A model generated the notes under the pieces. The model was not told where the DNA came from. It did not search any database and worked only from the letters and a program-made list of their open reading frames with translations. Shown piece after piece: positions 24,133-63,453 of a stretch of 64,000 nucleotides of DNA (its first letter is position 1; each line of letters begins with the position of its first letter). This stretch comes from an uncultured Solirubrobacteraceae bacterium (GTDB lineage: Bacteria > Actinomycetota > Thermoleophilia > Solirubrobacterales > Solirubrobacteraceae). A program made the translations under genes and the position numbers. The stretch spans positions 64,282-128,281 of the forward strand of contig CAWFQR010000003.1 of NCBI GenBank assembly GCA_963818035.1, written 5' to 3'.

Positions 24133-25736
24133 ATGGCGGCGGAGCGCAGTGGGGTGATCGGATCACGCTCCCGGGTGCGGCTCGGGCTCGCCTCGGACGA
24201 GTGGCTGGTCGGCGTCGTGCGGCGCGGCGACACCGCCGCGTTCGAAGCCCTCTACGACCGTCACGCGCGCGAGCTGCTCGGGTTCTGCATCTACATGCTC
24301 GGGTCCCGCCAGGACGCCGAGGACGCGGTGCAGGCGACGTTCACCTCCGCGTACCGCGCGCTCCGCGCGGACAGCCGGCCGATCGCGCTACGTCCCTGGT
24401 TGTTCACGATCGCGCGCAACGAGTGCCTGACGATGCTGCGTCGCCGCCGGCCGATGGTCGAGCTGACCGGCGACGTCGCGGCGCGCTCGGGCCCCGCCGA
24501 CCACCTCGAGCTCAACGAGGAGGTCCGCAGCGTGTTCGAGGGCCTGCGCAACCTCCCCGAGACCCAGCGGGCGGCGCTCGTGCTGGCGGAGGTCCACGGC
24601 CTCAGCCACCGCGAGGTCGGCCGGGTGCTCGGCGTCCGCGCCGAGCAGGTCAAGGCGTTCGTCTACCAGGCCCGCTCGAAGCTCGTCTCCGACCGCGCGG
24701 CGCGTGACGCGGACTGCCGCGAGATCCGCGAAGAGCTCGCGACCGCTCGCGGCGCGGCGCTGCTGCGCGGCCGCCTGCGACGCCACATGCGCTCCTGCCC
24801 GGACTGCCGCACCTACGCCGACGGTGTCGCCCGCCAGCGGCGCCAGCTGGGCGCGCTGCTGCCGTTCGTGCCGTCGCTCGCGCTGAAGTACCGGGCGCTG
24901 GAGGGAGCGTTGAACTTCGGTGGGGCCAGCGACCCCGCGACCGCCGCCGGCGGCGCGGTCGCCGGCGCGACGATCGCCGGCACCGCCGCCGAGGTCGCCG
25001 GCAGCAGCGCGGGAGCGGGCGCACTGGTCTGCAAGATCGCTGCGGGCGTCGCGTGTATCGGGGCGAGCGCCGGCATCGGCGTGTCGGTCCTGGCCTCGCC
25101 CGCGGGCAGCGCCGCCCGCAGCGGAACGACGACCGCGCATTCGGCCGAGCCGCTGCTCGCCTCGGCGACGGCGCCCCACTCGCAGGCGTCCTCGGTCGCC
25201 TCCCGCGCGACCTCGGGGCCGGCCGGGAACGGCGGCGCGCGGGAGCGGCTCGTTCCAGGTCTCGACGGTCGTCGCGCCGGACGGGCGGGGGCCGCGGCTC
25301 CGCCTCGCCGTCCGACCCCGGCGACGTCAGCGTCCGCAACGTCGCCTCGGTCAACAACGCTGAAGCCGGCGGCGTCCGTGGCGAAACCGAAGCTGCTCCA
25401 GCCGGGTCGGACGAATCGCGGCCGGGACCGCCCGGGGAAAGGAGCACCGACGGCGAACACCGCGCGGCGGCCGAACAGCGCAGCACGCGCCGCCATGGCC
25501 ACAGGCAGTACGTCGAAGAACAGGCCCGCGACCGTGAACAGCGTCAGGCCGAACGGGCCGCCAAGCAGGAAGAAGAACGCAAGCGCCGAGCCGAAGAAGC
25601 CGCCCAGCGTCGCGCGGAACACGAAGCGGAACCGGTCGGCCACTCGCGCGTTCCCCCGACCGAAGAAGAACGGATCGCAAAAAAGGAACGCAACGAACAG
25701 AAACGCGAACAGCGCCGGCAGGAACGCGAACCCTGA
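24133..25736 (+). CDS. ECF sigma factor fused to a zinc finger, TM segment and charged extracytoplasmic tail (frameshift ~25250-25310)
   Basis: DAEDAVQATF, PWLFTIARNEC, LPETQRAALVL, HMRSCPDC; hydrophobic IAAGVACIGASAGIGVSVL; tail in ORF 25053..25736. Confidence 0.85.
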
Positions 25737-25770
25737 TTGCGGTCCCTCCCCGCGAAGCGTCGCGGGCACC

Positions 25771-27091
25771 TCACTTCTTGTATTTGAAGCGAGCCTTTTT
25801 CGAGTCCGCGCTGGTGCCCGCCGCGGTCCGGACCGTCACGTAGACCGTGCTCTTCGCCACTCCCGAAGGCGAGGACGCCCTGATCGTCGTCGCCGATTCG
25901 ACGATCACGCCCGACGCCGCCGCGGAGCCGAAGTCGACGGTCGCGGGGCTCGTGAACCCGGTGCCGGTGATCGTCACCGCCGTCCCGCCTGCTGAGGGGC
26001 CCGGACGTCGGCGCGACCCCGGTCACGGTCGGCAGCTGCGCGACGCGCTGCTCGCATTCGCCGGTCGCGTTGCTGAACATCTGCTGGTAGTAGTAGAGGT
26101 CGCCGTCGATCACCTGGTTGAAGTCGGCGCCGTCGGGCGCCTTGCCGAGCGGTTCGCCGTATTCGGTCTTCGCCTTGAAGGTCCGGCACTTGTCGGCCAC
26201 CTCTTCGCCCTTGGAGTCGTACCAGGCGTTCAGCTCGGGATCGGTGACGGACTCGCTGTGCTCGTGGGCGATCCCGCCGCCGATCTCGGCGTCGGAGGGG
26301 CTGCCGTTCGGATGTTCTTCGCCGAAGTCGCAGTTGTCGCCGACCATGTACGGGATGTCCGCGTAGACGAGCACCCCTTCGGCGGTGGCGTCGTAGCTGT
26401 GGTACGCGCAGTAGACCCGGTGTTCGGTCCCGTCCGAGCAGGACTTGCCGGCCGCTTCCATGCAGCTTTCGACCCCCGCCGGCGTCAGCAGGAAGTACTC
26501 GTGTTCGAGGTCGACAGGGAGGTGGTCGGCTTCGACGAACGCGACGATCTCCGCCCGCAGCTGGGCGTCGGTCAGGCACACCGGCGCGGCCGAGCAGCCG
26601 TTCGCCGGATATGGGTCGGTGTCCAGCAGCTCGCCGCCGAAACGGGATTCGTAGGCCGCGCGGTGCCCGAAGCGGTCCGTGTACTGGGTGAGGATCGAGT
26701 CGGTGTTCGTGAGCGCCCCGCTTTCGTCCGCGAGATCCGTGAACCAGCGGTCGATCCCGGACACGTAGCCCGCCGGATATTCGCCCGCGGCGGGCGGATC
26801 CCAGTACAGCGCGTAGTTGGTGTTCGAGGGCATCACGGGCCCTTCGTGGTAGACGAGCAGCGGGCCGCCTTTGCCGTTCGGGCCGCCACCCTTCGCAGCC
26901 CTGACGCGGGCCGCCGCGGCGCCCGGAGCCGGCTGGTAGCTGTAGGAGCGGCCTTCGACGCGGGCGATGATCGCCCGGGCCTGAGGCGCCACGAGGGCGA
27001 GGACTGCAGACGCCGCCAGGAGCGCGAGGAGGCACGCGCGCGCACCAGGTCGCGTCGGCTCGATCCCTCTTTTCTCAGGCCGTGTGCTCAT
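25771..27091 (-). CDS. Secreted Phi-1/EXORDIUM-like domain protein with C-terminal IPT/TIG domain (frameshift ~26000)
   Basis: Signal peptide; YHEGPVM, YCAYHS, HEHSESVTDP, EVADKC; IPT motif VTGVAPTSGP...TITGTGF. Confidence 0.72.
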
Positions 27092-27303
27092 GGAGCTCCC
27101 TCTCCCGCAAGCGCTCGCATTCTACCGGCGGTCCGCCGGCTCGGCCAGGGCGTGAAGGCCCTCCTCAGAGGGAACGCGAGGCGGCGTCCAAGGTTGGAGC
27201 GGAAACGATCCAATGACCGCGCGACACGGCCGCGGCGCTCGTGTCAGGATTCGCACGGCGCCGCATCCCGAAAGCGGGAGCGCGGCATACAGCAGGGGGC
27301 AAT

Positions 27304-29274
27304 TTGATCCGTCTGATCCGCAGAGCGGCGTGCTTGTCGTGGCCGGCGATCGTGCTGTGGTGCGCGCCGCCGGCGAACGCGGCGACCGTCGCGCCGACCG
27401 CGCCCGTGATCGCGACCCCGGCCGGCGCGGGCGCGCGGTTCGGCGCGAGCGTCGCGGTCTCCGCCGACGGCGACGAGGCGATCGTCGGCGCGCCGCTGCA
27501 GGGCCCGACCGGCGCCGTGTGGTTCTACTCGCGCACGGAATCGGGCTGGCAGCTCGAAGCCGGTCCGTTCGTCGGCGGCCAGAGCGTGACGCGTTGCGAG
27601 GCGCAGGAAGCGCCCGAACCGGAAGACTGCCGGTTCGGGTTCTCGGTCGCCCTGTCCGGCGACGGCCGCACCGCGCTCGTCGGACAGCCGGGCGCGAGCT
27701 CCGACAAGGGCCTCGTCACGGTCCTCTCCCGCTCGGGCGCGGGCTGGGCCGAGAGCGGTGAGCTGACTGGCGGCGAAGCGTCCGGGGACCCGCATTTCGG
27801 GCGCTCGCTCGCGCTCTCCGCGGACGGCGGCACCGCGATCGTCGGCGGCCCGTTCGATGCCCACAGGACCGGTGCGGTGTGGGTCTTCAGCGACGGCGCC
27901 GCCGGCTGGGTGCAGGACGGCCCCAAGCTCACCTCACCGGCGCAGGCCCCGAACGGCTACTTCGGGTTGAGCGTCGCGATCACCGCCGACGGCGCGAGCG
28001 CCCTGGTCGGCGCCCCGGGACCGGAAGGCGGCGTGGGCGCAGCCTGGTCGCTGCTCGACGGCGGCGAAGGCTGGGAAGTGCAACCCTCGCCGCTGCACGG
28101 CGAAGAAGCGCAGGGCGGAGAGCTGTTCGGGCACAGCGTCGCGCTGTCCGCCGACGGCTCGACGGCGCTCGTCGGTGCGCCCGCACACGGCGGCGTCGGC
28201 GCGGTCTACGCATACGGGACCAGCGACAGCGGCTGGACGCAGCAGGGTCCTGCGCTGGAGGCGACGCCGGCCGAAGCGGCGGAGCGGATCGGGACGAGCG
28301 TCGCGGTGTCCGCAGACGGCACGCTCGCGCTCACCGGCGGCGTCGGCTACGACCACGGCGCCGGGGCCGCCCTCGAGTTCGCGCGCCACGGCGGCGAATG
28401 GTCGCAGCAGCTCGAGCTGGTCTCGGGGATCGAACCCACCCCCCTGCATTCCCACCTGGGCGCCAGCGCCTCGCTGTCCGGCGACGGCTCGGTGGCGCTG
28501 CTCGGCGCGCCGTTCTCCGAACTCGAAGCCGGCGGCGTCTGGGGCCTGCCGGCGCCCGGCGCCAAGCAGGAAGAAGGACCGAAGCAGGAAGAAGGACCGA
28601 AGCAGGAAATGCCCACCGGTGAAACGCCGTCGGGCGAAACGCACAACACCGAAACCAAGCAGGAAACGAAGGGGAACGCCAGGATCAACGTGCTGTCGTC
28701 CAGCTCCTCCTCCCCCCCGTCCGGGCCCGTCGTCGAAAGGTCCGGCAACGTCGCTCCGGTGTCCGGCAGCGTGCTCGTCGAGCTCCCGGGGACCGCGGCG
28801 TTCGTACCGCTCACGGGCCTGCGCACGGTGCCGTTCGGAACGACGATCGACGCGACCCACGGCCGCGTGACCGTGACCACCGTCGGCCCGGCCGGCGCGC
28901 TGCAGACGATCACGTTCTACGAAGGCGAGTTCGAGCTCGTCTCGACCGGACACGGGCACGTGGTCGCGCTGCTCTTCGGCGGCAGCTACGCCGGCTGCCC
29001 GACGCGCCGCGAGCGCGCGCACCTCGCGACGGCCGCCGCCACCCGGCGCAGCAGCAAGACGGTCCGGAAGCTGTGGGCGAGCGGTCACGGCACCTACACG
29101 ACGCGAGGGACCTACGCGGCCGGCGCGGTGCAGGGAACGCGGTGGCTGACGGTCGACCGCTGCGACGGGACGAGGATCACCGTCGCGACCGACAAGGTGC
29201 TCGTGACGAACCTCGTCACGCACCACCGCAAGCTGGTCCGCGCGGGCCGCAGCTACTTCGCCGCGGCGCCCTGA
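27304..29274 (+). CDS. Secreted FG-GAP repeat beta-propeller protein with C-terminal beta domain
   Basis: Repeated FGxSVALSADGxTALVGAP units; TTG start after AGGGGG; signal peptide. Confidence 0.85.
   Translation: MIRLIRRAACLSWPAIVLWCAPPANAATVAPTAPVIATPAGAGARFGASVAVSADGDEAIVGAPLQGPTGAVWFYSRTESGWQLEAGPFVGGQSVTRCEAQEAPEPEDCRFGFSVALSGDGRTALVGQPGASSDKGLVTVLSRSGAGWAESGELTGGEASGDPHFGRSLALSADGGTAIVGGPFDAHRTGAVWVFSDGAAGWVQDGPKLTSPAQAPNGYFGLSVAITADGASALVGAPGPEGGVGAAWSLLDGGEGWEVQPSPLHGEEAQGGELFGHSVALSADGSTALVGAPAHGGVGAVYAYGTSDSGWTQQGPALEATPAEAAERIGTSVAVSADGTLALTGGVGYDHGAGAALEFARHGGEWSQQLELVSGIEPTPLHSHLGASASLSGDGSVALLGAPFSELEAGGVWGLPAPGAKQEEGPKQEEGPKQEMPTGETPSGETHNTETKQETKGNARINVLSSSSSSPPSGPVVERSGNVAPVSGSVLVELPGTAAFVPLTGLRTVPFGTTIDATHGRVTVTTVGPAGALQTITFYEGEFELVSTGHGHVVALLFGGSYAGCPTRRERAHLATAAATRRSSKTVRKLWASGHGTYTTRGTYAAGAVQGTRWLTVDRCDGTRITVATDKVLVTNLVTHHRKLVRAGRSYFAAAP
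28564..28608 (+). repeat. 18-bp tandem repeat x2.5 (KQEEGP) in the linker
   Basis: AAGCAGGAAGAAGGACCG twice, then AAGCAGGAA. Confidence 0.85.
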
Positions 29275-29390: not shown

Positions 29391-31073
29391 ATGTCGAAGG
29401 TCCTCTGGCCGGCTGCGCGCGCAGGCTCGGCGGTCGCCGCGTTCCTCTGCATCGCATTGGCCGGTCCGGCCGGCGCCTACGGCGCGCACGCCGCCAAACC
29501 GAAAGTCAGCCACTGCAAGACCAGCAACCAGAAGGTGCTGCGCGTCGGCACCTACGACGGCAAGAAAGGCCAGTGCGCGACGATCTCCGAAGCGGTCGAA
29601 GCGGTGAAACCGGGCGGCTGGGTGCTGATCGCGCCCGGCGACTACAAAGAAGCGACCGTCCACGAGATCGAAGGCGCCTACGGCGACGACCGCGCAGGCG
29701 CGTCGGTGCTTGTGAAGACGGCGAACGTCCACGTCCGCGGGATGAACCGCAACACGGTGGTGATCGACGGCACCAAGCCCGGGAGCCCGCAGTGCGCGAG
29801 CTCCGAAGCCGATCAGAACTTCGGGCTGCCCGAAGGCGAAGGCTTCGCGGGCAACAACGGGATCATCGTCGACAAGGCGAGCGGCGTCTCGCTGCAGAAC
29901 TTCACCGCCTGCAACTTCCTCGCGAGCAACGCCGGCGGCGACGCGATCTGGTTCGACGGCGGCGGCAGCAGCGGCCACCAGGACATCGGCGACTGGACGG
30001 GCGAATACCTGAGCGCCACCTCGACATTCTGGGGCGGCAAGACCAAGCCGCACGCCGAATATGGGATCTACGCCTCGAACACGTTCGGCCCCGGCATCTT
30101 CGACCACACCTACGCGGGCAACATGGCCGACTCGGGCTACTACATCGGCGCCTGCCCGGACTGCAAAGCGGTGATCGACAACTCGAAGGCGGAGGGCAAC
30201 GACCTCGGCTACTCGGGATCGAACTCGGGCGGACATCTCGTGATCGAGAACTCCGAATTCGCCGACAACGAGGAGGGCGTGGCGACGCAGAGCCAGAACA
30301 ACGACGACGCACCCTCGCCGCAGGACGGGATCTGCCCGGAAGGCAAGGAAAATCCCTCGCCGCCGGCGATCGCCCAGCGCAAGGACATCTGCTGGGTGAT
30401 GACCGGCAACCGGGTCGTCGACAACAACAACGGCGCGACCCCGACCAACTCGAGCGCGCCCGGTCTGGTCGGCACCGGCATGACGATCGCCGGCGGCCGT
30501 GACGACCTCGTCGTCGACAACACGTTCGAAGACAACAAGGCATGGGGGATCCTCGAGCTCCCGTACCCCGGCGTCGAAGAATCGCCGCCGCCGCAGATCC
30601 CTCCGGAAGACAACTGCAAAGGCGGGAAACCGGTCGAAGCCGCCGGCAAGTCGGAGTGCATCTACGAACCGTTCGCAAACGAGGTCGCAGGCAACACGTT
30701 CGCCGAAAACGGCGGCTACGGGAACCCGTCGAACGGGGACATCGGCGAAGTCGCCGACCCCGAACCGACGGAGCTCGCGAACTGCTGGCACGGCAACGTC
30801 GAGCGGGGCGGCGGGGAACCGTCGAGCGAACCGAAGCTGATCCAGGTCACGCACGGCACCTGCTCGAGCCCCGACAGCGGGGGCGAACCGCTCACCAGCG
30901 TGCTCGCGGTGCAGGCCACGTGCGACTCGCAGCTGCTCGCGGAATGCCCGAGCGTCCCGGGCGAGGAATACCCGCGGTCGAGCGAAGTGAAGCTGCTGCC
31001 GCTGCCCGAAGAAGCAACGATGCCGGACCCGTGCGAAGGGGTCCCCGCGGACCCCTGGTGCCCGCGGCGCTGA
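29391..31073 (+). CDS. Secreted right-handed parallel beta-helix protein
   Basis: TISEAVEAVKPGGWVLIAPGDY, YGIYASN, DSGYYIGACPDC, Asn-ladder repeats. Confidence 0.8.
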   Translation: MSKVLWPAARAGSAVAAFLCIALAGPAGAYGAHAAKPKVSHCKTSNQKVLRVGTYDGKKGQCATISEAVEAVKPGGWVLIAPGDYKEATVHEIEGAYGDDRAGASVLVKTANVHVRGMNRNTVVIDGTKPGSPQCASSEADQNFGLPEGEGFAGNNGIIVDKASGVSLQNFTACNFLASNAGGDAIWFDGGGSSGHQDIGDWTGEYLSATSTFWGGKTKPHAEYGIYASNTFGPGIFDHTYAGNMADSGYYIGACPDCKAVIDNSKAEGNDLGYSGSNSGGHLVIENSEFADNEEGVATQSQNNDDAPSPQDGICPEGKENPSPPAIAQRKDICWVMTGNRVVDNNNGATPTNSSAPGLVGTGMTIAGGRDDLVVDNTFEDNKAWGILELPYPGVEESPPPQIPPEDNCKGGKPVEAAGKSECIYEPFANEVAGNTFAENGGYGNPSNGDIGEVADPEPTELANCWHGNVERGGGEPSSEPKLIQVTHGTCSSPDSGGEPLTSVLAVQATCDSQLLAECPSVPGEEYPRSSEVKLLPLPEEATMPDPCEGVPADPWCPRR

Positions 31074-31156: not shown

Positions 31157-32200
31157 ATGGCATCGACCCCTGCGCTGAGCGCGCCCTCCGCGGGCGCAAG
31201 CTTCGAGACCGGCACGATCGACCGGCGCGAGCTGCGTGACGACGACGTCGAGATCGAGATCCGCTACTGCGGGATCTGCCACAGCGACGTACACCAGGCG
31301 CGCGACGAGTGGGGCAACGCGATCTTCCCGATGGTGCCGGGCCACGAGATCGCCGGCGTGGTGACGGCGGTCGGGCCGCGCACCGGGCGCTTCGCGGTCG
31401 GTGACCGCGTCGGCGTCGGCTGCATGGTCGACTCCTGCGAGGAGTGCGAGTACTGCAAGGCGGGCGAGGAGCAGTTCTGCGTGAAGGGGAACGTCCAGAC
31501 CTACAACGGCCGCTACTACGACGGCACGCCGACATACGGCGGATACAGCCGGCAGATCGTCGTCAAGGAGCGGTTCGTCGTGCGCGTCCCCGACGCGATC
31601 GAGCTGGCCGACGCGGCGCCGCTGCTGTGCGCGGGGATCACCACGTACGTGCCTCTGAAGCACTGGCAGATCGGCCCCTCCTCGAAGGTCGCGGTGATCG
31701 GGATGGGCGGCCTCGGGCACGTCGGGGTCCAGCTGGCGGCGGCGATGGGCGCCGAGGTGACGGTGCTGAGCCAGACGCTCGCAAAGCAGGAGGACGGGCT
31801 GCGGTTCGGCGCCAAGCACTACTACGCGACATCCGATCGCGAGACCTTCCGGGCGCTTCGCGACAGCTTCGACTTCATCCTCAACACGGTCTCCGCGAAC
31901 CTCGAGGTCGACCGCTACCTGCGGATGCTGCGCGTCGACGGCACGCTGGTCAACGTCGGCGCCCCGGCGAAGCCCGACCAGTTCCACGCGTTCTCGCTGA
32001 TCGCCGGACGGCGGAGCCTCGCGGGCTCGGCGATCGGCGGTCTCCCCGACACCCAGGAGATGCTCGAATTCTGCGCCGAGCACGGGGTCCGGCCGCAGAT
32101 CGAGATGATCTCCGCGGCCGAGGTCGACGGCGCGTATGACCGCGTCGTCTCCTCCGACGTGCGCTACCGGTTCGTGATCGACGTCGCGACGATCGGCTGA
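31157..32200 (+). CDS. NAD(P)-dependent zinc alcohol dehydrogenase (cinnamyl-ADH/AdhC-like)
   Basis: CGICHSD, GHEIAG, CEECEYC, APLLCAGIT, GMGGLG, YRFVID. Confidence 0.95.
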   Translation: MASTPALSAPSAGASFETGTIDRRELRDDDVEIEIRYCGICHSDVHQARDEWGNAIFPMVPGHEIAGVVTAVGPRTGRFAVGDRVGVGCMVDSCEECEYCKAGEEQFCVKGNVQTYNGRYYDGTPTYGGYSRQIVVKERFVVRVPDAIELADAAPLLCAGITTYVPLKHWQIGPSSKVAVIGMGGLGHVGVQLAAAMGAEVTVLSQTLAKQEDGLRFGAKHYYATSDRETFRALRDSFDFILNTVSANLEVDRYLRMLRVDGTLVNVGAPAKPDQFHAFSLIAGRRSLAGSAIGGLPDTQEMLEFCAEHGVRPQIEMISAAEVDGAYDRVVSSDVRYRFVIDVATIG

Positions 32201-32646: not shown

Positions 32647-33369
32647 ATGAGATTTCCCACCGCGGTCGCGGCTGCGATCGCCGCTCTAGCAGTAGGCGCG
32701 GCGCCAGCCGTCGCCCAGAAAACCGAACCGCCCAACCCGCACAACTTCACGGGCAGCCCGAACGCCGAACCGAAGTTCGTCGGCGAAACCCAGGAATTCC
32801 TGCTGAAGCCCTTCACGGTGACGTGCGAAACCGCGAAGTCGAAAGCATCAGGGGTCACGCCGACGTTCCCGTCGAAAACGTTGACCGCGGTGCTGAAGTA
32901 CTCCGGCTGCGAAGCCGAAGCGACGATCGGCAAAGCGGAATACGAACTCAAAGCGAAGTTCGTTTCGCCGGTGACGGTCAACTACCGCGCCAACGGCGTC
33001 GTCGAAATCGGCTCCGGCGGGACGGTCAAAGAAGGCAAACTGGAAGGCGCCGGCCCGATCGAAATCGCGGTCAAGGGTGCCTTCAAGTGCACGATCGACA
33101 TCGAAGCCGGAACGTATCCGGCGGCTGCGCTGAAGAAACCCGAAAAGGAATTCGAAGCCGCCAAATACACGAACCTCGTCGAAACGGTCGAACACGGCAA
33201 GAAGACCGAAGAAGTCAAGAAGCTCGAAATCGCCACGAACCTGACGAAACTCCCCTACGAAATCGAAGGGGAATTCTGCGAAGCCCTGCCGAAGACGGAA
33301 TTCACCGGCGGCACGTACGAAGGCTCGCTGGTCGCTGAAATCAAGAAGGGCGACATCGGCTGGGAATAG
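32647..33369 (+). CDS. Secreted Glu/Lys-rich hypothetical protein
   Basis: AGGAG SD; signal peptide ending AVA; four Cys; beta-rich pattern. Confidence 0.85.
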   Translation: MRFPTAVAAAIAALAVGAAPAVAQKTEPPNPHNFTGSPNAEPKFVGETQEFLLKPFTVTCETAKSKASGVTPTFPSKTLTAVLKYSGCEAEATIGKAEYELKAKFVSPVTVNYRANGVVEIGSGGTVKEGKLEGAGPIEIAVKGAFKCTIDIEAGTYPAAALKKPEKEFEAAKYTNLVETVEHGKKTEEVKKLEIATNLTKLPYEIEGEFCEALPKTEFTGGTYEGSLVAEIKKGDIGWE

Positions 33370-33900: not shown

Positions 33901-35601
33901 TCAGAACTGCTGCGAGAGGGCTTCGGCCTGCAGCGAGCCGATGCCCGTGCAGTAGTCGTAGCCCGCTTTCGCCACGCACCCGCCGTTGCTGCCGAGCGTG
34001 ATGTCGCGGAAGCCGGGAACCGGCTTCGGTTCCGCCGCCGCCACGTACAGCGGACCGGTCGGCGCTTCCTCGACCGTCGCCGGGTTGACCTTGTTGTAGA
34101 GCTTGTAGAAGTCGAGCTGCGCGAGGCCCAGCTTGTTCTTGTGCGCGTTCTCGACGCTCGCCCACAGGCCCAGCGTGAGCGGGCTGGCTACGCTCGTGCC
34201 CCCCACCCCCGTCGGTTCGGTTCCCGGCGTGTCACCGCTGTAGACGAGGTACGGCGTGTTGCCGTCCGCCAGTGCGGCGACGTCGGGCACGCCGCGGCCG
34301 CCCTGGTTGGTGAACTCCCAGGCCTGTCCGGCGGTGTTCGCCTGCAGCGTCCACGGCGGTGCGGTCTCCCACGGGGAGATTCCGCCGCCACCGCCGACCC
34401 AGGCGATTTCTTCTTTGACTTCGCCTTCGGAGGACGCGAGCAGCGTGGTGCCTCCGACGGCCGTCGTGTACTCGCCGTCGGCGGGCCAGGAGACGCCCGG
34501 GGGCCCCTCGGGCACGCCGCTGGATGCCGCCTCGGGACAGGCGTAGCCGTTGTCGCCGGTCGAGGCGAACATGCTCTGACCCTGCAGCGCGCCCTCGGCG
34601 AGGGCCTCGTCGCTGGTCAGCATCGCGCCGTCGAGGAACGCGATGTAGTCGCACTCGCCGAGCGAGGCCGACAGCGCCGTCGCCTTGTCTTCGGAGACGA
34701 ACATGTTGATCGCGCGTGCGACCTCGGGGTCGGTGTAGGTCGCGACGTCGTAGATGTCGAGCTGCTTGACGGCCTTCGGGACCATCGTCGAGATCTGCGT
34801 GTCGAGATCCCACTCGAGGTTGCCGGACAGCGGGTTGCCTTCGACGATGCCCTGTTCGGGCCCGTCGTAGATCACCTTCACGGGCACCTGCGAGTAGCCC
34901 CACTGCTGCTCGGCGTAGCGCAGCGCGCCGATCGTCGGCGTCGTGTCGCCGCTCATCACGATCGCCGTCGTCGTCGTCTTCGCGGCCTTCATGTTCGCGT
35001 CGTCGTAGGCGTTGGCGACGGCCTTCGGGGTGAAGCCGCTGAGGTCGGGGGTCGATTCGCTCGTCAGTTCCGGGAGCGCGGCCGGCACGTCGGAGAGGCC
35101 GAGCACCGCCGCGACATCGCCCTGCAGGGCCGCCGGGACGCTCGCCGTGGCAGTGTTGGCGTACACCGTCTTGCCGCTCAGCGAGTACGTCGAGATCGTC
35201 GTGTCGAACGCCTGCTCGGCCTGCGCCACGGTCGCCGTGGCCGTCACGAGCAGGCGGTTCGGCGACGCGCTGACGCCGGTGAACCCGTTCGACTCGAGGT
35301 AGCGCTCGACCGCCGAGACCGAGGCCGCGGAGGGGCTGAAGCGCTTCCTGACCTGGCCGGCCGGCAGGATCGTTCCGGCTTCGATCAGCGGGTTGACCGC
35401 CGACGCTTCGCGGAGCGGGAGCACGACGCTGACGGTCAGCTGCTGGGTGGCCGGAGCCGAGCCGAGCAGGGTGCCGTCGAGGTTCAGCGCCTGGGTGTGC
35501 GTCGGCACCCAGGACGTGGCCGCGTCAGCCGACTGCGCTGACGTGGCACCGAGCGCGACGAGCGCGCCGATGACGAGGAGGAACTGCGAGGGCTTTTTCA
35601 T
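33901..35601 (-). CDS. Secreted S53 (sedolisin/kumamolisin) peptidase with pro-domain
   Basis: EWDLD (catalytic Glu/Asp), STGDNG, RGVPDVA, GGTSVASP (Ser), GYDYCTGIGS. Confidence 0.93.
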   Translation of the reverse strand: MKKPSQFLLVIGALVALGATSAQSADAATSWVPTHTQALNLDGTLLGSAPATQQLTVSVVLPLREASAVNPLIEAGTILPAGQVRKRFSPSAASVSAVERYLESNGFTGVSASPNRLLVTATATVAQAEQAFDTTISTYSLSGKTVYANTATASVPAALQGDVAAVLGLSDVPAALPELTSESTPDLSGFTPKAVANAYDDANMKAAKTTTTAIVMSGDTTPTIGALRYAEQQWGYSQVPVKVIYDGPEQGIVEGNPLSGNLEWDLDTQISTMVPKAVKQLDIYDVATYTDPEVARAINMFVSEDKATALSASLGECDYIAFLDGAMLTSDEALAEGALQGQSMFASTGDNGYACPEAASSGVPEGPPGVSWPADGEYTTAVGGTTLLASSEGEVKEEIAWVGGGGGISPWETAPPWTLQANTAGQAWEFTNQGGRGVPDVAALADGNTPYLVYSGDTPGTEPTGVGGTSVASPLTLGLWASVENAHKNKLGLAQLDFYKLYNKVNPATVEEAPTGPLYVAAAEPKPVPGFRDITLGSNGGCVAKAGYDYCTGIGSLQAEALSQQF

Positions 35602-38464: not shown

Positions 38465-39355
38465 TCAGCCGCCGGCAAAGCGCGCCTGCTGTGCGAGCAC
38501 GCTGCTCACGTACTGTTCCGTTTCCGGCAGCTCGCCTTCGCGGCGGACGGATTCGAGGCCCTGGTAGTAGCCGGCCGCGGCGAGTGCGGGATCGCCTTCC
38601 GTTTCGCTCAGGAGCCAGTGCAGCATCAGCACCCCGCCGCGCACGTTCGACGCCGCCGACGCGGGGTTCAGCTGTGTGCTCCCGGCCAGGTCCTGGCCGA
38701 TCCAGCTCCAGGTCCCCGGCAGGATCTGCATCACGCCGCGCGCGTCGGAGCCCGAGGTGAAGCGGTTGTTGAAGCCGCTCTCCTGATCGGCGATCGCCTC
38801 GGCGAACGAGGAGGGCACTCCGTTTTCGGCAGCGATCGCGCCGACTTCCGACGGGGCGATCGTTTCTTCGGTCGGGTACGGCGCATCGGCAGTCGCCGCC
38901 GGTGTCTGGCCTTCGCTCGCCGGCACCGGCGAGGCGCCCGGCACGCTCACCACGGTTCCCGCGAGCAGCGGCGCTTCGGCATCGAGGCCGTTGAGCGCCG
39001 CGAGGCTTTCGACGCTCACGCCGGAGCGGGCGGCGATCGCGGAGAGCGTGTCTCCGGGCTGGACGACGTATGACCCGCCACCTTCGGCGGGAGCCGGCGA
39101 TTCGACGGGAGCCGCGGCTTCGCCCGCTTCGGATGCGGCCGCTGGGATCGTGATCGTGGATCCGGCGACCAGCGCGGATTCGGTCGAGAGGCCGTTGGCC
39201 GCCGCAAGCTGTTCGACGCTGAGCCCGTCGGCGGCGGCCACGGACGACAGCGACTCGCCGGGTGCGACGAGGTGGCTCACGTCCGCGTCGGCAAGAGATG
39301 GGATCGCGAGGAGGAGCGAGAACGCAAGGATCGAGGGCAATGCACGAGGGCGCAT
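38465..39355 (-). CDS. LysM x2 plus lytic transglycosylase (SLT) protein
   Basis: HLVAPGESLSSVA, YVVQPGDTLSAIA, QESGFN, ARGVMQI. Confidence 0.92.
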   Translation of the reverse strand: MRPRALPSILAFSLLLAIPSLADADVSHLVAPGESLSSVAAADGLSVEQLAAANGLSTESALVAGSTITIPAAASEAGEAAAPVESPAPAEGGGSYVVQPGDTLSAIAARSGVSVESLAALNGLDAEAPLLAGTVVSVPGASPVPASEGQTPAATADAPYPTEETIAPSEVGAIAAENGVPSSFAEAIADQESGFNNRFTSGSDARGVMQILPGTWSWIGQDLAGSTQLNPASAASNVRGGVLMLHWLLSETEGDPALAAAGYYQGLESVRREGELPETEQYVSSVLAQQARFAGG

Positions 39356-57991: not shown

Positions 57992-58058
57992 TGGGAAGGA
58001 CGCAAGGGTATCAACGGACCGCCGCCCCGAGGAGGGCGCCTCCCCACCCCGCGGAGGC

Positions 58059-59477
58059 TCAGTACGCCCGGATCGGCGGACCCTTGTAGACGGCCCCTTC
58101 CGGGCTGACCCAGCGCACCCGCCAGTGGGTTGCTGAGACGTAGGACCGCAGCGTCCAGTAGCCCGCGGCAGTCGTGTTGACCTGGGCGAGCGTCCGCCAG
58201 CGACTCGATCCCGGGTGCTCGATTTCGACGGTGACGGTCGTGGCGCCGGTCGCAGGCCGCACATAACCCCAGAGCGAGTAGCCGCCGCCACCTCGGCTGA
58301 CGACGAGCGGTACGGGGAAGCTCGAGAGCAACGGCTTGGCGCGGCCGTTCGAGTACTCGAGCCCGGTCTGGAACGCGACGTGGCTGCGACCTTTCGTGGT
58401 GTCGTCACGCAGCAGGTACTGGGAGAAGGAGGCGACCCGCGGGTTCGACCACGCGATCTTCTCAGCGGTCGCGTCGTACTCGGCCTGCTGTGCCACCGGC
58501 ACCCCGATCGAGCTGTCCGGGTAGCTGATCACGCCGAACTCCGTGATGTAGAGCGGCAGGCCCGAGGTGATCCGTCCCGCTCGCGCCGCCGCGTCGAGCG
58601 CCCCGGTCATCCGGCCGAGCACCCCGATCGTTACCGACTCGGGGTCCTTCGGAACGTAGAAGGGGCCGCGGATGCTCGCGTACGGATGCAGCCCCCATCC
58701 GGTCGCGGTCAGCTTCCTGCACGAGCCCACGCGCCGGTAGCTGCTGTTCAGGCAGAGCACGCCGCGCATGAAGGTCAACGGCGAGACGTTGTGGTTGGGG
58801 CCCCGCACCGGCGTTCGCGGATGCGCTTCGCCTTCGGGTGCCGTTTCGCCGATCAGCACCGCCGGATGCGCGATGCCGGCGGCCTGCAGCCCGGCGTATC
58901 CCGCCAGGTAGAGCGCGCGGTAGATCCCCGGCGAGGCGGGCGAGCCGTTGCTGTTGAACTGCGGTTCGAGGAATTCATGGTGGTTGGGCTCGTTCCAGAT
59001 CGAGAACAGCGAGACCTTCCCCGCGTAGTGGCGCCCGACCGCCGTCATGAATGCCTTGAACTGCCCGGCGTTCGGCTTGTAGAGCGCCGAGCGCCCACGC
59101 GGGTTGCCGGTCGCCCAGCGAGGCACCGGCGAGGTGACCGTCAGCAGGACCTTCCAGCCGCGAGCGTGCGCTTCTTCGATCACCGGGTCGTACTCGCTCC
59201 AGTTGTAGGAGGCGGGGTTCGTGGTTTCGAAGGAGGGACGATGGACGCTGTTCGGTCCGGGCGCGACGGTGCGCCAGCTGAGCTCGACCCGCAGCGCGCG
59301 GACCCCCAGCCGCTGCAGCGTCGCGATCGTCGCCGGCCTCGTCGCGGGGTTCAGGAGCAGCGACGGCGACTCGAAGAAGGTCGTCTCGGAGTGGGACGCC
59401 GAAGCAGATGCTGCGAGCGCGCCGCAGACGAGGGCGGCGGCGAGCACGCATGAGACGAGCCTGCGCGGGGTGAGCAT
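58059..59477 (-). CDS. Secreted GH-A clan glycoside hydrolase (GH5/GH39-like)
   Basis: Signal peptide; IWNEPN acid/base, LHPY, YITEFG nucleophile. Confidence 0.85.
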   Translation of the reverse strand: MLTPRRLVSCVLAAALVCGALAASASASHSETTFFESPSLLLNPATRPATIATLQRLGVRALRVELSWRTVAPGPNSVHRPSFETTNPASYNWSEYDPVIEEAHARGWKVLLTVTSPVPRWATGNPRGRSALYKPNAGQFKAFMTAVGRHYAGKVSLFSIWNEPNHHEFLEPQFNSNGSPASPGIYRALYLAGYAGLQAAGIAHPAVLIGETAPEGEAHPRTPVRGPNHNVSPLTFMRGVLCLNSSYRRVGSCRKLTATGWGLHPYASIRGPFYVPKDPESVTIGVLGRMTGALDAAARAGRITSGLPLYITEFGVISYPDSSIGVPVAQQAEYDATAEKIAWSNPRVASFSQYLLRDDTTKGRSHVAFQTGLEYSNGRAKPLLSSFPVPLVVSRGGGGYSLWGYVRPATGATTVTVEIEHPGSSRWRTLAQVNTTAAGYWTLRSYVSATHWRVRWVSPEGAVYKGPPIRAY

Positions 59478-59738: not shown

Positions 59739-60033
59739 CTGAGAAGAACCGCTGCGTCGGCTCGTCAAGACCCGAGGAGCGCCGCCGGCGCGTCGAGTGC
59801 CGCCACGCACGAGTGATCGTGATCCCCCCGAGCGGCACTCGCCGCCGCCCTGAGCCGTCGCACGCTTACGAATCGCTGATCCGCTCTCCCCTGCGCCCGT
59901 CGTGCCCGCGGTGCCGAAGCCCCGCCGGAGCCGGTTCCTTGGGACTGCCGGCTGAAACCTGTCTGCTGTATGTGGCGGTGAGCGCCGCGCGCGGGACGGG
60001 CGACCGCCCGTCCCGCGCCCGGACGCTGCGGTC

Positions 60034-60834
60034 CTAGCGGACTTCGACCTTGAAGACCGGCTGGAACTGCGCCCAGCCCGTCGCTTCGAACTTGCTGTTG
60101 TAGTAGATGCTTTCCGGCAGCGGGTCGGCGCCGACGGCCGGTGTGCCGCTGTCCGCGGGAGGTTCGGACACGAAACTCCCGCCGCTGAAGCCCTTGTATG
60201 AGGTCTGCAGCCCGACGTTGACGATGTCTCCACCGCACGCTTCGCAGCTGTTCGTGAGCAGCACGATCACCTTCGCCGGCAGCGGTTTGCTCTGCGTGAA
60301 TTTTTTGAACGTCACGCTCTGTCGCAGCCCGCCGACGTCGCAGTTGGAGCCAAAGCCCTTGCCTTCTTCGGTAGCGGGACACGTGACATTGGTGGTCGGC
60401 CGGTAGCGGAGCTTCGCGACCGTCGTGCCGGTGGCGACCAGCGCACCCGGTTCTTCACCCGCTCCGACGGCGTACACGTCCACCGTCCATTCCTGCGAGA
60501 ACTTCTTCGTTTCGTGGAGCGTGTAGCAGTTTTCGAGCTGGTATTCGCCGTGTTCGCACTTGAACACGTCGACTTCGGTCCCGATCGACTTCAGCAGCCG
60601 GCTGTTCGTCTCGACCGTTTCGATCTGGCCGCCGAACAGCTTCCCGCCCATGAACGCTTCGTAGTCCTGGGAGTAGGTGTCTTCGTTGGGTTTGCCGTTG
60701 ACCGTGGCCGGCACGGTGTTGAGGTTGTTGTACGCGACTTCTGGCGCCGCGTTCGCGCTCGAAGCGCCGATCGCGGCGCACAGCAGTGCCGCGACGACCC
60801 CCAACGTCACCCGCAGCAGGGCAGGCTTGCGCAT
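60034..60834 (-). CDS. Secreted hypothetical protein
   Basis: Signal peptide ending ANA; AAGGGG SD; six Cys in the mature part. Confidence 0.82.
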   Translation of the reverse strand: MRKPALLRVTLGVVAALLCAAIGASSANAAPEVAYNNLNTVPATVNGKPNEDTYSQDYEAFMGGKLFGGQIETVETNSRLLKSIGTEVDVFKCEHGEYQLENCYTLHETKKFSQEWTVDVYAVGAGEEPGALVATGTTVAKLRYRPTTNVTCPATEEGKGFGSNCDVGGLRQSVTFKKFTQSKPLPAKVIVLLTNSCEACGGDIVNVGLQTSYKGFSGGSFVSEPPADSGTPAVGADPLPESIYYNSKFEATGWAQFQPVFKVEVR

Positions 60835-60952
60835 GGTTCCCCCTTCTCTCGGCGCCTGTCCGGGCGCCGCTGGTGCTTGAGCGTGTGAGGGACCCTCGCA
60901 TCGCGGCCCCCCGCACTTGGCTGGAGAAGTCTGTGCGATCTCGCCCCGCGGG

Positions 60953-61549: not shown

Positions 61550-61611
61550 ACCGCCGACGTTACCCGGCCGGTTCCGGCTCGACCCACCCGACGAGCGGTC
61601 CGAGACTGCCG

Positions 61612-63453
61612 TCACTCCCCGCCCGGCGCCGATGCCTCGCCGAGCACCGCGCGCAGCCGCGCCTCGTGCCGCAGCGCCTCCCCGACCTCGACGCGGAGCC
61701 GCATCAGCTCGCGCTGGCGCCGCACCAGCAGCACCGCGAGCCCCGCGATCAACAGCAGCGCCAGGATCGCGACCGCCGTGCCGGCCTTCTCCATCGCTTC
61801 GGAATGCCCGCTCGGGCCCGCCGGCAAGGTGAACCCGCCCGACGCCGCGTGGGCGTCCACCGCGCGCCGCCCGGGGCCGATCACCGACGTCGTCTCGCGC
61901 GCGATCGCGACCATGTCGCGCGGCGAGAGCGAGTTCGTGAGCGTGTTTTCGACCCAGTACGACCCGCCTCCCTCGGCCCAGGCGACCGTCCGCAGGTGTT
62001 CCCCGTTGTAGTAGAGGTCGTAGGTGCGGGTCCCGAGACGAAGCTGCGAGGTCGGGTCCGCGAGCACCGGCGGGTTCTTCCAGCTGGTTCCGACCACGTC
62101 GTAGTATTCGCCGAGCCCGCCGCGGTCGATCACGACCACGTATGCCGGGTACAGGTGCCGCCCGTCCGGGGCACGGATGTCGTAGCGGCGAACGAGGTCG
62201 GGGGCGGCCGCCGCGTTCGTGAACTGGTAGCGCGGCGCCTCTACCGGGAACGCGAGGTCCGGCGCGATCGCCTGCGCCTGCTCCGTCGTGGTCGCCCCCG
62301 CCGGCGACATCCCCGGAGCGGTGGGGGCGGAGTGCGAGGACGCGTGCGAGGAACGCGACGAGTGCGAGCCCCCGACGCTCCCGTGCACGACCGCCGCGGT
62401 GCCGTCGAGGAAGTTGTGGACGGCTTCGTGGATCTCCCGTTCGGAGGCCGTGTCATAGGTCGGGAACAGGTTCACGTGGAACGGCACCTGGCGCACCGGC
62501 TTGCCGGCCGATTCGGCGAGCAGCTCGAGGAGCTGCAGGACCTGGCTGGAGTCGTGCAGCGCGCTGTCGGTTTCGACCGTGCGCCCGAAGATCCGCTCGA
62601 GCTTTTCCCGTTCCCCGAGCGCCGTCGGGCCGTACTGGCTCTTGACCGCCAGCAGGAACCGCTGGTCGCGGGCGTCGCGGGTCAGCGAGGTGTCTTCGTG
62701 GCGGTTGGCGACGAATTCGAGCGCCTGCGGGCCGCACAGCCGCTGATAGCCCGGCTGGAGGTTGATTTCGAAGTACTGTTCGCCGCCCGGTTCGTTGACG
62801 TGGTAGTAGCGGCGGTCGACGGTCATGTACACGCAGCCGAGTTCGTCGACGGCGTGCCGGAACTTCGGGAAGTTCGTCACGAACACGTGGTTGACGCTGA
62901 CCCCGAGCGTTTTCTTGATCGTTTCGAGCATCAGCTGCACGCCGCCGGCGGTGCCGTGCCCCTGCAGGTAGCCGTACGTGTATGCGGAGTTGATCCGGTT
63001 CGTGATCACCTGGCCGCGGGGCGTCGTGAACGTAACCTGCAGCTCGCGGGGGATCGAGAGCATCGAGATCGTGGGCTTGCTCGGGTCGACCCGCACCAGC
63101 AGCATCTCGTTCGAGTGCGGCTCGACGGCGCCGTTGGGGTTGCTCTTCGGTGGCGGCCGTTCGTCGTTGCCGACGAGCAGCAGCGTCTCGGCGCCGCCGG
63201 GGGTCGTCCCCAGCAGCAGCCCGGGCTTGACCGTGACCGGTTTGCTCTCGCGCAGCGCTTCGACGATCTTGTCGACCTCGTTCAGCGCGAGCACGGCGGT
63301 GACGGCGCCGGACAGGACCGCGATCGCGAGGCCCGCGATCAGCACGCGGCGTGCCAGCCACCAGGGGCGCCGCGGCGGCTCGCCGAGGTCGGCGGCGGCC
63401 GCGCCTGCGGCGGACAGAGGCGCTTTCGGATGTGCGGGGTCGAACGTGCTCAT
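61612..63453 (-). CDS. LCP (LytR-CpsA-Psr) family protein with two TM segments
   Basis: LLVGND, MLSIPRE, RINSAY, ALEFVANRH, RDARDQRFL. Confidence 0.9.
   Translation of the reverse strand: MSTFDPAHPKAPLSAAGAAAADLGEPPRRPWWLARRVLIAGLAIAVLSGAVTAVLALNEVDKIVEALRESKPVTVKPGLLLGTTPGGAETLLLVGNDERPPPKSNPNGAVEPHSNEMLLVRVDPSKPTISMLSIPRELQVTFTTPRGQVITNRINSAYTYGYLQGHGTAGGVQLMLETIKKTLGVSVNHVFVTNFPKFRHAVDELGCVYMTVDRRYYHVNEPGGEQYFEINLQPGYQRLCGPQALEFVANRHEDTSLTRDARDQRFLLAVKSQYGPTALGEREKLERIFGRTVETDSALHDSSQVLQLLELLAESAGKPVRQVPFHVNLFPTYDTASEREIHEAVHNFLDGTAAVVHGSVGGSHSSRSSHASSHSAPTAPGMSPAGATTTEQAQAIAPDLAFPVEAPRYQFTNAAAAPDLVRRYDIRAPDGRHLYPAYVVVIDRGGLGEYYDVVGTSWKNPPVLADPTSQLRLGTRTYDLYYNGEHLRTVAWAEGGGSYWVENTLTNSLSPRDMVAIARETTSVIGPGRRAVDAHAASGGFTLPAGPSGHSEAMEKAGTAVAILALLLIAGLAVLLVRRQRELMRLRVEVGEALRHEARLRAVLGEASAPGGE

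Follow-up and report, generated by a model that had tools for sequence, protein, structure and literature searches.

Background

To our knowledge, the 20 standard amino acids have just two known additions, selenocysteine and pyrrolysine; both are placed at stop codons and at few sites. Pyrrolysine is added by a dedicated synthetase (PylRS), an odd tRNA (tRNA-Pyl) and dedicated biosynthetic enzymes (PylBCD), as outlined in PMC7609411. Duplicated synthetases that co-evolved with an odd tRNA of their own are presented in PMC9437257 for Streptomyces (ProRSx/tRNA-ProA) and Desulfobacterales (CysRS*/SelC*), together with extra LeuRSs with damaged editing or C-terminal parts in Sulfolobaceae (LeuRS-I) and Halobacteria (LeuRS2), and with EpmA/EpmB, a LysRS paralogue and lysine aminomutase that put beta-lysine on EF-P. 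Shifts of sense-codon meaning with a switch of tRNA identity are covered in PMC8629427 and bioRxiv 10.64898/2026.05.03.722492 (AGG, CGA and CGG; ACA to Asp in Acidimicrobiales), also within Actinomycetota. Cysteate synthase of Methanosarcinales is described in PMC9457059 as a PLP enzyme derived from threonine synthase, in which sulfite replaces phosphate. In accounts of Magnaporthe effectors, the use of AA-ending codons (U34 thiolation) follows secretion.

A window of 64,000 nucleotides from an uncultured soil bacterium of the Solirubrobacteraceae, and the genome to which it belongs, were analysed for a split between the codons GAA and GAG. We consider that GAA has probably been reassigned from glutamate to a non-standard, likely anionic Glu/Asp analogue, by way of a five-armed tRNA, a LeuRS paralogue (LeuRS*) and a threonine-synthase-like enzyme (ThrC*).

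The GAA/GAG split

The first-pass annotation had claimed that Glu is written GAA in exported domains and GAG in cytoplasmic ones, with switches inside single genes. The following genes of the window were recounted:

2431-3306: coiled coil, cytoplasmic control, 3 GAA/40 GAG
15871..16578, reverse: IF-3 with acidic tail, cytoplasmic control, 3 GAA/27 GAG
24133..25359, forward: ECF sigma factor (cytoplasmic portion plus hydrophobic segment), 2 GAA/20 GAG (24133-24780, 2 GAA/16 GAG)
25362..25736, forward: ECF sigma tail, in a different frame in the assembly, 27 GAA/0 GAG
27352..29274, forward: secreted repeat protein, 27 GAA/13 GAG
29391..31073, forward: secreted protein, 30 GAA/11 GAG and 8 AAA/16 AAG
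31157..32200, forward: alcohol dehydrogenase, cytoplasmic control, 1 GAA/21 GAG
32647..33369, forward: secreted K-rich protein with only 2 Asp, 30 GAA/0 GAG
33901..35601, reverse: secreted sedolisin (S53)-like protease, 15 GAA/16 GAG
38465..39280, reverse: LysM and lytic-transglycosylase-like protein, 19 GAA/4 GAG
58059..59477, reverse: secreted clan-A glycoside-hydrolase-like protein, motif Glu both GAG
60034..60834, reverse: secreted protein, 19 GAA/1 GAG
61612..63453, reverse: LCP-like membrane protein, external residues 60-555 19 GAA/13 GAG, cytoplasmic C-tail 0 GAA/6 GAG

The recount bore out the examples given earlier, namely the all-GAA and single-GAG secreted proteins, the mostly GAG dehydrogenase, the switches within the ECF sigma and LCP genes, and the Glu-rich cytoplasmic controls that stay GAG. 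The ECF sigma tail follows a frameshift near 25360, one of several across the genome; it presumably lies outside the membrane, and its K/R runs interleaved with GAA runs resemble charged single helices.

The split is real and genome-wide. With our own gene calls and a hydrophobicity-based topology (no SignalP), GAA accounted for 2382 of 4049 Glu codons (0.59) in exported (N-terminal signal/C-out) segments and 310 of 563 (0.55) in lipoprotein genes, against 3125 of 22192 (0.14; median gene 0.08) in cytoplasmic genes, the 0.14 being too high because some secreted genes, their starts mis-called, fall into this class. About 12,000 positions of the genome are GAA. Across 11 membrane-spanning kinase, anti-sigma and FtsH-type genes, GAA stood at 32/313 inside and 54/80 outside. 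Control genomes, in which the odd tRNA is lacking, were read over 1.6 of 3.0 Mb (G015) and 200 kb (G192/G010); there GAA made up 0.02-0.04 of Glu codons in each topology class, and none of the 1124 G015 genes had a GAA fraction of at least 0.4.

That exported genes owe their GAA to horizontal transfer or mutational A-bias is hardly credible, and was rejected, nothing having turned up in its favour. As argued from the outset, the switch falls within genes; fourfold-site composition was flat across topology classes (A 0.034-0.040, GC 0.925-0.929), and the core genes pbp2, mreC, ftsQ and prsA follow the exported pattern. The earlier proposal of selection on the GAA codon itself in exported sequence is supported.

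It had also been noted that Gln CAA barely moves and Lys AAA does so partly. Genome-wide, CAA was flat (0.02-0.04; 0.035 exported vs 0.037 cytoplasmic) and AAA went up from 0.13 to 0.21-0.23 in the exported classes. It is unlikely that GAA is still read as Glu through the odd tRNA and that codon choice tunes elongation or export, in the manner of AA-ending codons and U34 thiolation in Magnaporthe. AAA does track GAA from gene to gene (rho 0.52, n=578), and cytoplasmic GAA is nearly synonym-like, both of which favour such tuning; however, under a bias of the U34-thiolation type AAA, CAA and GAA would rise together, and CAA stays flat.

GAA and GAG are not interchangeable

The catalytic Glu of exported enzymes speaks further against tuning, being GAG even within GAA-rich genes. 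In the window this was observed for the lytic-transglycosylase-like protein (DQES, 38780-38782), the glycoside-hydrolase-like protein (WNEP, 58989-58991; ITEFG, 58539-58541) and the sedolisin-like protease (EWDLD, 34813-34815). With motifs written as regular expressions, tightened after a first look at the results and not Pfam-confirmed, GAA was found at 0/20 catalytic-motif Glu of exported enzymes vs 12.0 expected from the same genes, at 5/108 over all motifs vs 21.6 expected, and at 0/64 in the strict set vs 15.3 expected. At the motifs of the strict set, rare Gly codons numbered 28/312 vs 37 expected and rare Asp codons 1/42 vs 4.5 expected; since the latter are also depleted, the catalytic GAA signal is partly ordinary accuracy selection.

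Individual columns were also fixed as GAA or GAG between species, which tuning would not predict. For GAA/GAG site fixation, exported families gave a Mantel-Haenszel odds ratio of 16.5 and cytoplasmic families one of 9.7; the synonym controls (D, F, H, N, Q and Y pairs) gave 0.9-1.9, and columns with 12/12, 13/13 and 15/15 GAA stand next to others with 0/13, 0/20 and 0/20. Like the codons of pyrrolysine and selenocysteine, GAA is thus not interchangeable with the codon of the standard residue, and mere synonymous codon bias is probably to be rejected. The first-pass annotation had treated GAA as a glutamate codon, a premise which these catalytic and cross-species tests contradict. Of the three mechanisms that it offered, elongation control and an mRNA-level signal leave the residue-level difference unexplained, and a dedicated or differently charged tRNA(UUC) alone is backed by evidence.

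In exported orthologues, the residues opposite GAA were E 17%, D 16%, A 13%, R 11%, Q 10% and K 4% (n=457), and those opposite GAG included E 36% and D 5% (n=354); the odds were E 5.1, D 3.3, Q 2.7 and K 1.5. Reassignment of GAA to another standard residue, Asp or Gln, is nevertheless very improbable. Asp does lie opposite GAA three times as often as opposite GAG, but no standard residue dominates GAA columns (top 17%, where true codons of those genes reach 32-65%), and in cytoplasmic genes GAA lies opposite Glu in 53% of cases (GAG, 61%). GAA was still found at 2.7-4.8% of cytoplasmic conserved Glu in the best-conserved contexts, and its drop with conservation was no faster than that of true synonyms. 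The 53% and this retention fit Glu or a very close mimic.

We infer that the GAA residue is anionic. At i±3/4 it is accompanied by AAA (1.5x) and AAG (1.2x) and avoids Asp (0.87), and the more net positive charge remains, the denser GAA becomes (rho 0.25, n=301). Bulk charge is no proof of an anion, since exported aligned columns come nearest the net charge of the control if the residue is neutral.

The five-armed tRNA, LeuRS* and ThrC*

Four loci outside the window are relevant:

G000 (this genome) C1:1235351-1235446, reverse: odd tRNA(UUC)
C2:632280-634492, forward: LeuRS*
C2:634534-635785, forward: ThrC*, beside LeuRS*
C2:1546538-1548060, forward: LysRS*, followed by kamD/kamE/kamB to 1551520

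Inspection of tRNA-Glu genes, suggested by the first-pass annotation, was rewarding: the only UUC tRNA found in this genome was the odd one, and a search for a second, normal tRNA-Glu(UUC) did not find any. The parallel suggestion of a gltX paralogue came to nothing in this genome, where the additional synthetases resemble LeuRS and LysRS. The odd tRNA carries UUC in a 7-nt anticodon loop (CT TTC AA), as a canonical tRNA-Glu(UUC) does. GluRS identity includes a U11-A24 pair and a short variable loop. Both are absent from the odd tRNA, which has C11-G24 (invariant in 20/20 sequences), a 5-nt variable loop and A73; U11-A24 is present in the tRNA-Glu(CUC) and both tRNA-Gln of the genome. The best alignments were to tRNA-Arg/Lys/Met (score 35-37), with tRNA-Glu(CUC) at only 10. 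Instead of a four-armed cloverleaf, it forms a fifth arm, a 7-bp D-loop hairpin that is 98.6% paired with compensatory changes at 4/7 pairs among 20 sequences. An RNA-library contig ending in A73-CC-poly(A) retains this hairpin; the odd tRNA is a mature CCA-ended RNA that keeps it.

Ambiguous or conditional decoding, in which conditions decide whether the tRNA brings the new residue or else Glu is inserted or the tRNA bypassed, seems unlikely as well. That GAA is tolerated at conserved Glu of cytoplasmic proteins and at the few looser motif sites (5/108) would suit it, but the odd tRNA lacks the features of GluRS recognition and no second UUC tRNA was found.

The odd tRNA was present in 15 of 201 Solirubrobacterales genomes, which represent two or three lineages and not 15 independent events. 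The canonical UUC pattern was found in 0/15 of these, a pattern that misses variants (it matched in only 75/201, and G015 and G348 carry one that it missed). LeuRS* was present in 15/15, and ThrC* in the other 14 plus a frameshifted copy in this genome, against 0/186 of the remaining genomes. A dedicated tRNA, synthetase and biosynthetic enzyme thus co-occur as in pyrrolysine- and selenocysteine-like systems, which tuning of Glu decoding does not account for. G339 and G041, like G419 and G448 below, serve as natural controls; they carry a LeuRS-like paralogue in different gene clusters and no ThrC*, and no GAA bias was seen in the 44 kb read. More widely, the tRNA pattern was matched by about 790 GTDB stretches, and 106 of 120 examined were the odd tRNA; among the 150 genus matches listed, 2-3 might have canonical arms.

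LeuRS* keeps the LeuRS motifs (HIGH/HMGH and KMSKH) and scored 442 and 448 bits against bacterial LeuRS TIGR00396, below the cut-off of 548. What we take to be its leucine pocket is rebuilt (LEMLPYP to KPSAPFT, TFVDSSWY to CHFDALWL, EHAILH to DSGNF) and gains Lys and His. It is about 70 aa short, without the C-terminal tRNA-binding domain, and its own genes use no GAA (0/55, 0/58). Another 7 genomes, all lacking the odd tRNA, have LeuRS-like paralogues at 51-56% identity.

ThrC* passes TIGR00260 (222, cut-off 167), fails PRK08197 (255, cut-off 303), its nearest group, described as threonine-synthase-like, and is no member of the cysteate synthase family TIGR03844 (51 bits, cut-off 325). Its phosphate-binding Arg motif region is altered (NSVNPYR to NITLRPFY; PVGNAGN to PAAGGTL), and a separate hom-thrC-thrB operon exists in the genome. 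The PRK08197-group copy in this genome adjoins a MoaD-like sulfur carrier.

LysRS* and AAA

The side-chain pocket of LysRS* reads M/S/D/E (g1) or F/G/G/D (f4) and not the Tyr/Asn/Phe/Glu of class II LysRS, and all 22 canonical LysRS rows retain WYE and N-x-F-x-E; the anticodon-binding OB fold is kept. KamD/KamE/KamB exceeded the lysine 5,6-aminomutase equivalog cut-offs (779/600, 349/280 and 294/210 bits). In other lineages the partner is a DAB-type aminotransferase or a PrmC-like methylase. LysRS* and such an enzyme may well recode AAA to a lysine analogue, a reading that we hold to be evenly balanced and less secure than that of GAA. No cross-species concordance of AAA was found in exported families (541 pair-sites), nor was a distinctive tRNA-Lys(UUU) when looked for, and G039 has a LysRS paralogue yet only 7/377 AAA.

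It is quite improbable that LysRS* loads the odd tRNA, being Lys/Arg-like, with a diamino acid that is later turned into an acid, LeuRS* doing otherwise. A second LysRS occurs in 15/15 odd-tRNA genomes, in 21 second-lineage loci LysRS* is followed 0.1-3.6 kb downstream by the tRNA, and the body of this tRNA is like tRNA-Lys. However, genomes that lack the tRNA or the bias also carry LysRS* (G039; G419 and G448, which have a canonical tRNA-Glu(UUC), no LeuRS*/ThrC*, and no GAA bias in secreted genes, 3/53 and 14/87), the partner of LysRS* varies among odd-tRNA genomes where tRNA, LeuRS* and ThrC* are constant, its pocket retains amine-binding acids, and GAA is not Lys-like.

Proposed explanation

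Reassignment by the five-armed tRNA, LeuRS* and ThrC* remains our preferred reading: GAA avoids catalytic Glu and the sole tRNA found for it is rebuilt, accompanied by LeuRS* and a dedicated enzyme, and so GAA likely encodes a new acidic amino acid. That GAA is likely no longer read as glutamate would explain why exported domains are rich in it and why catalytic Glu are not written with it. ThrC* is predicted to make the amino acid, and we infer that LeuRS* charges the tRNA(UUC) with it. The LeuRS family recognises A73 and arm structure, not the anticodon; LeuRS* lacks the domain gripping the variable arm of tRNA-Leu, and the new D-loop arm could serve as a handle. Every GAA would give the new residue, export being no decoding rule; selection would favour it on surfaces outside the cytoplasm, tolerate it at a few in every hundred generic cytoplasmic Glu sites, and exclude it from active sites. 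A sulfonate (cysteate or homocysteate; S-sulfocysteine fits too) is a tentative guess, made by analogy because cysteate synthase evolved from threonine synthase.

In a parallel AAA system, LysRS* and a lineage-specific enzyme would place a lysine analogue. The widest version, for which we claim only limited confidence, is that soil Solirubrobacterales expanded the code twice, with GAA as a sulfonated Glu/Asp analogue and AAA as a lysine analogue, in a bulk re-surfacing of the exported proteome and, in phages that infect these hosts, of virion proteins.

If true, the GAA residue would be the likely 23rd amino acid and the AAA lysine analogue the 24th, and a non-standard residue read from a sense codon, at thousands of sites and across hundreds of common soil genomes, would redefine the limits of "the genetic code". 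Proteomes with recoded GAA would be mis-translated in all databases, and the synthetase/tRNA pair, predicted to be anticodon-blind, would be a natural one for anionic residues.

Comparison with known systems

Compared with pyrrolysine, which uses UAG, the codon here is a sense codon at about 12,000 mostly surface positions, the synthetase is class I and LeuRS-derived, and the predicted residue is anionic. ProRSx and CysRS*/SelC* still use a standard amino acid, alongside a normal tRNA, whereas here the pocket is rebuilt and a normal tRNA-Glu(UUC) was not found. Leucine and tRNA-Leu remain the substrates of LeuRS-I and LeuRS2; in LeuRS* the pocket is altered and the C-terminal domain missing, and the occurrence of LeuRS* follows that of a UUC tRNA and a PLP enzyme. 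ThrC* differs from cysteate synthase in its profile score and in lying nearest to the PRK08197 group. LysRS* differs from EpmA in keeping the OB fold and in its partner, a B12 5,6-aminomutase or other lysine-analogue enzymes. The Magnaporthe case is eukaryotic, synonymous and a whole-mRNA effect, unlike the flat CAA, the within-gene switch that follows the membrane and the single fixed sites seen here. The bacterial sense-codon reassignments described are all to standard residues; Codetta's own statement is that reassignment to a non-canonical amino acid is not predictable by it, and the GAA reassignment, if true, would be invisible to screens of that type.

GAA usage in relation to protein topology

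Gene calling covered the entire genome (G000; 3.75 Mb, 82% complete) and used a model that ignores the choice between GAA and GAG and between AAA and AAG; topology was assigned from hydrophobicity. The GAA and GAG counts reported for the window in the first-pass annotation were reproduced on recount. Its proposal that exported domains use GAA and cytoplasmic domains use GAG was found to hold genome-wide. The GAA share per gene was bimodal. By topology class, the share was 0.59 for signal-bearing proteins, 0.55 for lipoproteins and 0.14 for cytoplasmic proteins. The switch within single genes was also confirmed: in 11 membrane-spanning genes, GAA accounted for 32/313 inside and 54/80 outside. 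Fourfold-site A, fourfold-site GC and CAA share did not change between the topology classes of G000, and the GAA share of same-family controls was 0.02-0.04 in every class (1.6 of 3.0 Mb sampled from G015, 200 kb of G192 and G010). These comparisons exclude horizontal transfer and A-bias as causes, both of which had already been doubted. The GAA pattern is real and reproducible across two lineages. The relatives that carry names are uncultured Solirubrobacterales.

Arg in mature exported domains was genome-wide about half of that in controls (0.053 vs 0.099), and Asp was also lower (0.041 vs 0.055). Frameshifts are frequent in the assembly (24133-25995 and 25544-26992 in the window; kamD and the LeuRS, threonine synthase and LysRS paralogues LeuRS*, ThrC* and LysRS* in G000), and they are probably sequencing errors because the split genes are intact in relatives.

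A five-armed tRNA with UUC anticodon

ARAGORN detected tRNA-Glu(CUC) in G000, no Glu(UUC) tRNA and one 96-nt gene without an assigned name. This gene has the anticodon UUC, C11-G24, A73 and a variable loop of 5 nt. A 7-bp hairpin sits within its D-loop, and its acceptor and D-stem resemble those of tRNA-Arg/Lys. In 20 chosen sequences the hairpin was 98.6% paired, with compensatory changes at 4/7 pairs. The unspliced five-armed tRNA was present in contigs from 4/4 RNA libraries; one contig, from one study, terminates in A73-CC-poly(A), as expected of a mature tRNA. Only small shares of the locus were matched in sequencing runs, and no habitat is proposed from them.

A UUC-type match was found in 108/111 genomes of the genus, and by our reading 127 of the 150 listed genus matches were of the five-armed type; two or three of the 150 might be canonical arms. 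The multiple "copies" are 3'-half matches, possibly duplicates at integration sites, and are not taken as a copy number. A GTDB-wide scan gave an estimate of about 790 matching stretches; 106 of the 120 fetched were five-armed tRNAs, and their titles name Solirubrobacterales, Thermoleophilia or unplaced actinobacteria throughout. Among 201 genomes of the order, taken as one sample, the tRNA was counted in 15, namely 9/9 of genus g1 and six in family f4 (genera g85 and g92); a sixteenth match, in G433, was dropped as it was not a tRNA arm. The canonical tRNA-Glu(UUC) pattern was found in 0/15 of these genomes, the same pattern being detected in only 75/201 of the order. The unpublished genomes G003, G142, G169, G241 and G361 were counted only in tallies, among them those of the tRNA patterns and of LysRS-like matches.

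In G010 (97%, complete-looking) GAA is used at 3%, yet a loose pattern found no UUC-anticodon tRNA. Ten phage contigs in IMG/VR (L383-L392) carry a sequence similar to the five-armed tRNA at its 5' end; their anticodons include TTC in five, with CCT, GCA and TTT among the others. The virion-like genes of one of them, L390, are GAA-rich (41/10 and 16/2).

Probable non-equivalence of GAA and GAG

In a comparison with control orthologues (945 pairs), GAA in exported genes faced E in 17%, D in 16%, A in 13%, R in 11%, Q in 10% and K in 4%, and GAG in the same genes faced E in 36%. The catalytic-motif Glu of exported enzymes (lytic transglycosylase, clan-A glycosidases, S53 proteases and CuA; three of these genes lie within the window) was GAG in 20/20, with 12.0 GAA expected. 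The motifs were tightened after an initial scan; the strict set gave GAA at 0/64 Glu (15.3 expected) and a looser set 5 in 108. Synonymous controls at the strict motifs were 28/312 for Gly (37 expected) and 1/42 for Asp (4.5 expected). Ordinary accuracy selection therefore covers part, but not all, of the motif signal.

The identity of GAA or GAG at single sites was kept across species carrying the five-armed tRNA (<80% identity; pairs not independent), with odds ratios of 16.5 in exported and 9.7 in cytoplasmic proteins. Six pairs of true synonyms gave 0.9-1.9 in the same test. Against non-equivalence, cytoplasmic GAA faced Glu 53% of the time in control orthologues and was retained at 2.7-4.8% in the best-conserved Glu contexts of cytoplasmic genes; the residue has to imitate Glu well, unless decoding is mixed. 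Taken as a codon, GAA probably does not stand for plain Glu.

LeuRS* and ThrC*

G000 contains one GluRS, two LeuRS-like and two LysRS-like genes. A gltX paralogue, suggested by the first-pass annotation as worth inspecting, was not found; a gltX/GluQ paralogue was rejected, G000 having one PF00749 match. An ArgRS paralogue was also rejected, being present only in G467 among 5 genomes and absent from G000 and G190. This G467 gene (L372:1189-2895) has a changed HIGH region, adjoins a PabA/TrpG-like gene and is a third odd synthetase in one genome.

LeuRS* (734-750 aa) keeps HIGH and KMSK and has no C-terminal domain; its editing motif is degenerate and its pocket is rebuilt with new Lys and His residues. 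Its gene has zero GAA in G190 and G467. A single-sequence AlphaFold model was unusable (pLDDT 34.6). Immediately downstream of LeuRS* is the gene for ThrC*, a third PLP enzyme of the threonine synthase family; the group closest to it is PRK08197. With E-value thresholds chosen by us to exclude canonical copies, LeuRS* was found in 15/15 of the genomes with the five-armed tRNA, which represent two or three lineages. ThrC* was found in the 14 besides G000 and in 0/186 remaining genomes; the G000 copy is frameshifted and fell below threshold. LeuRS-like matches at 51-56% identity occurred in 7 of the 201 genomes, all without the five-armed tRNA, and in two of these, read in part, the gene lies in other clusters and there is no GAA bias.

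Related LeuRS-like paralogues were seen at L395 and L398 (G339, which has two) and at L397 and L401 (G041). By eye, they lie in what look like gene clusters for amino-acid biosynthesis (LysW-like carrier, RimK, ArgC/ArgB-like, ATP-grasp), and they are a possible source of LeuRS*.

G419 and G448 have LysRS* and a canonical tRNA-Glu(UUC), located between argF and lgt (comparison of L342, L343, L346 and L347), without LeuRS* or ThrC*, and show no GAA bias. The first idea, that LysRS* charges the five-armed tRNA with a basic residue, was dropped on these controls and on the GAA substitution profiles. In the same loci, the position downstream of LysRS* is occupied by tRNA-Val(UAC) in G448, G462 and G469 and by the five-armed tRNA in other f4 genomes.

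Proposed route to the GAA residue

ThrC* may remove phosphate from phosphoserine or phosphohomoserine and then add a sulfur nucleophile, as cysteate synthase does (PMC9457059). LeuRS* would activate the product, recognising A73 and the new D-loop arm, and the five-armed tRNA would place it at every GAA. This route as a whole is considered fairly likely. Several observations suggest an anionic residue: the E/D/Q profile, the alternation with K/R along the ECF tail, the neighbours that GAA prefers and a weak correlation with charge. Bulk composition, taken by itself, leaves this character undecided. That the residue is a sulfonate is a tentative proposal, somewhat doubtful at present. In deliberate speculation, a strong acid, permanently charged and resistant to Glu-specific chemistry outside the cell, could explain the compartment pattern.

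LysRS* and the AAA codon

LysRS* sequences from g1 and f4 group in a single clade (98/94) that is separate from canonical LysRS, and their side-chain pockets are altered. The partner is KamDEB (lysine 5,6-aminomutase) in 8/9 g1 genomes (0/192 others) and a PrmC-like methylase in f4. Eleven further genomes, including the control G015, have two LysRS-like matches; no Class I LysRS was found above the cut-off. AAA made up 15% of Lys codons in G000, 0-2% in family f1 controls and 7% in short f4 control pieces, and was high in exported and Lys-rich proteins of G000. At Walker A Lys it was found in 0/78 (6.0 expected) and in 0/47 in other loci. A recoding of AAA is weakened by the lack of site-level concordance across species in exported families, by the fact that no special tRNA-Lys(UUU) was seen, and by G039, where a basal LysRS paralogue lies between tRNA-Lys(UUU) and a desaturase/hydroxylase-like gene (L344:9457-12493) and few AAA codons occur over the 80 kb covered. 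The chances that AAA encodes a lysine analogue through LysRS* are evenly balanced.

In G106, a g1 genome that lacks kamD, the partner of LysRS* is a DAB-type (diaminobutyrate-transaminase-like) aminotransferase gene (L345:7742-10756; 396 vs 402 bits); the secreted genes of G106 have GAA at 79/113 and AAA at 41/68. Two cytoplasmic Lys/Ala-rich tails of G000 have almost no GAA and AAA at 25/33 (C1:663324-664046; control orthologue 0/31) and 14/17 (C2:1543609-1544220). The family of the latter has 83% AAA over 19 loci, and 19/24 in G419.

Comparison with known systems

The favoured reading of the GAA system is a natural expansion of the genetic code. No description of such a system was found in the literature covered; an undecided GAA call for these genomes might stand in the supplementary material of the Codetta and k-mer studies. 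The available portions of PMC7609411, bioRxiv 10.64898/2026.04.02.715157 and 10.64898/2026.05.03.722492 contain no "Solirubro" or GAA case, and Codetta, by its own statement, cannot call a non-canonical residue. According to PMC9437257, PMC8629427 and bioRxiv 10.64898/2026.05.03.722492, standard residues are kept in ProRSx/tRNA-ProA, LeuRS-I/LeuRS2 and the known bacterial sense reassignments, whereas the residue proposed for GAA is non-standard. The likeness to the pyrrolysine system lies in the working principle; the GAA system differs from it by its sense codon, its LeuRS-derived enzyme and its bulk use at protein surfaces.
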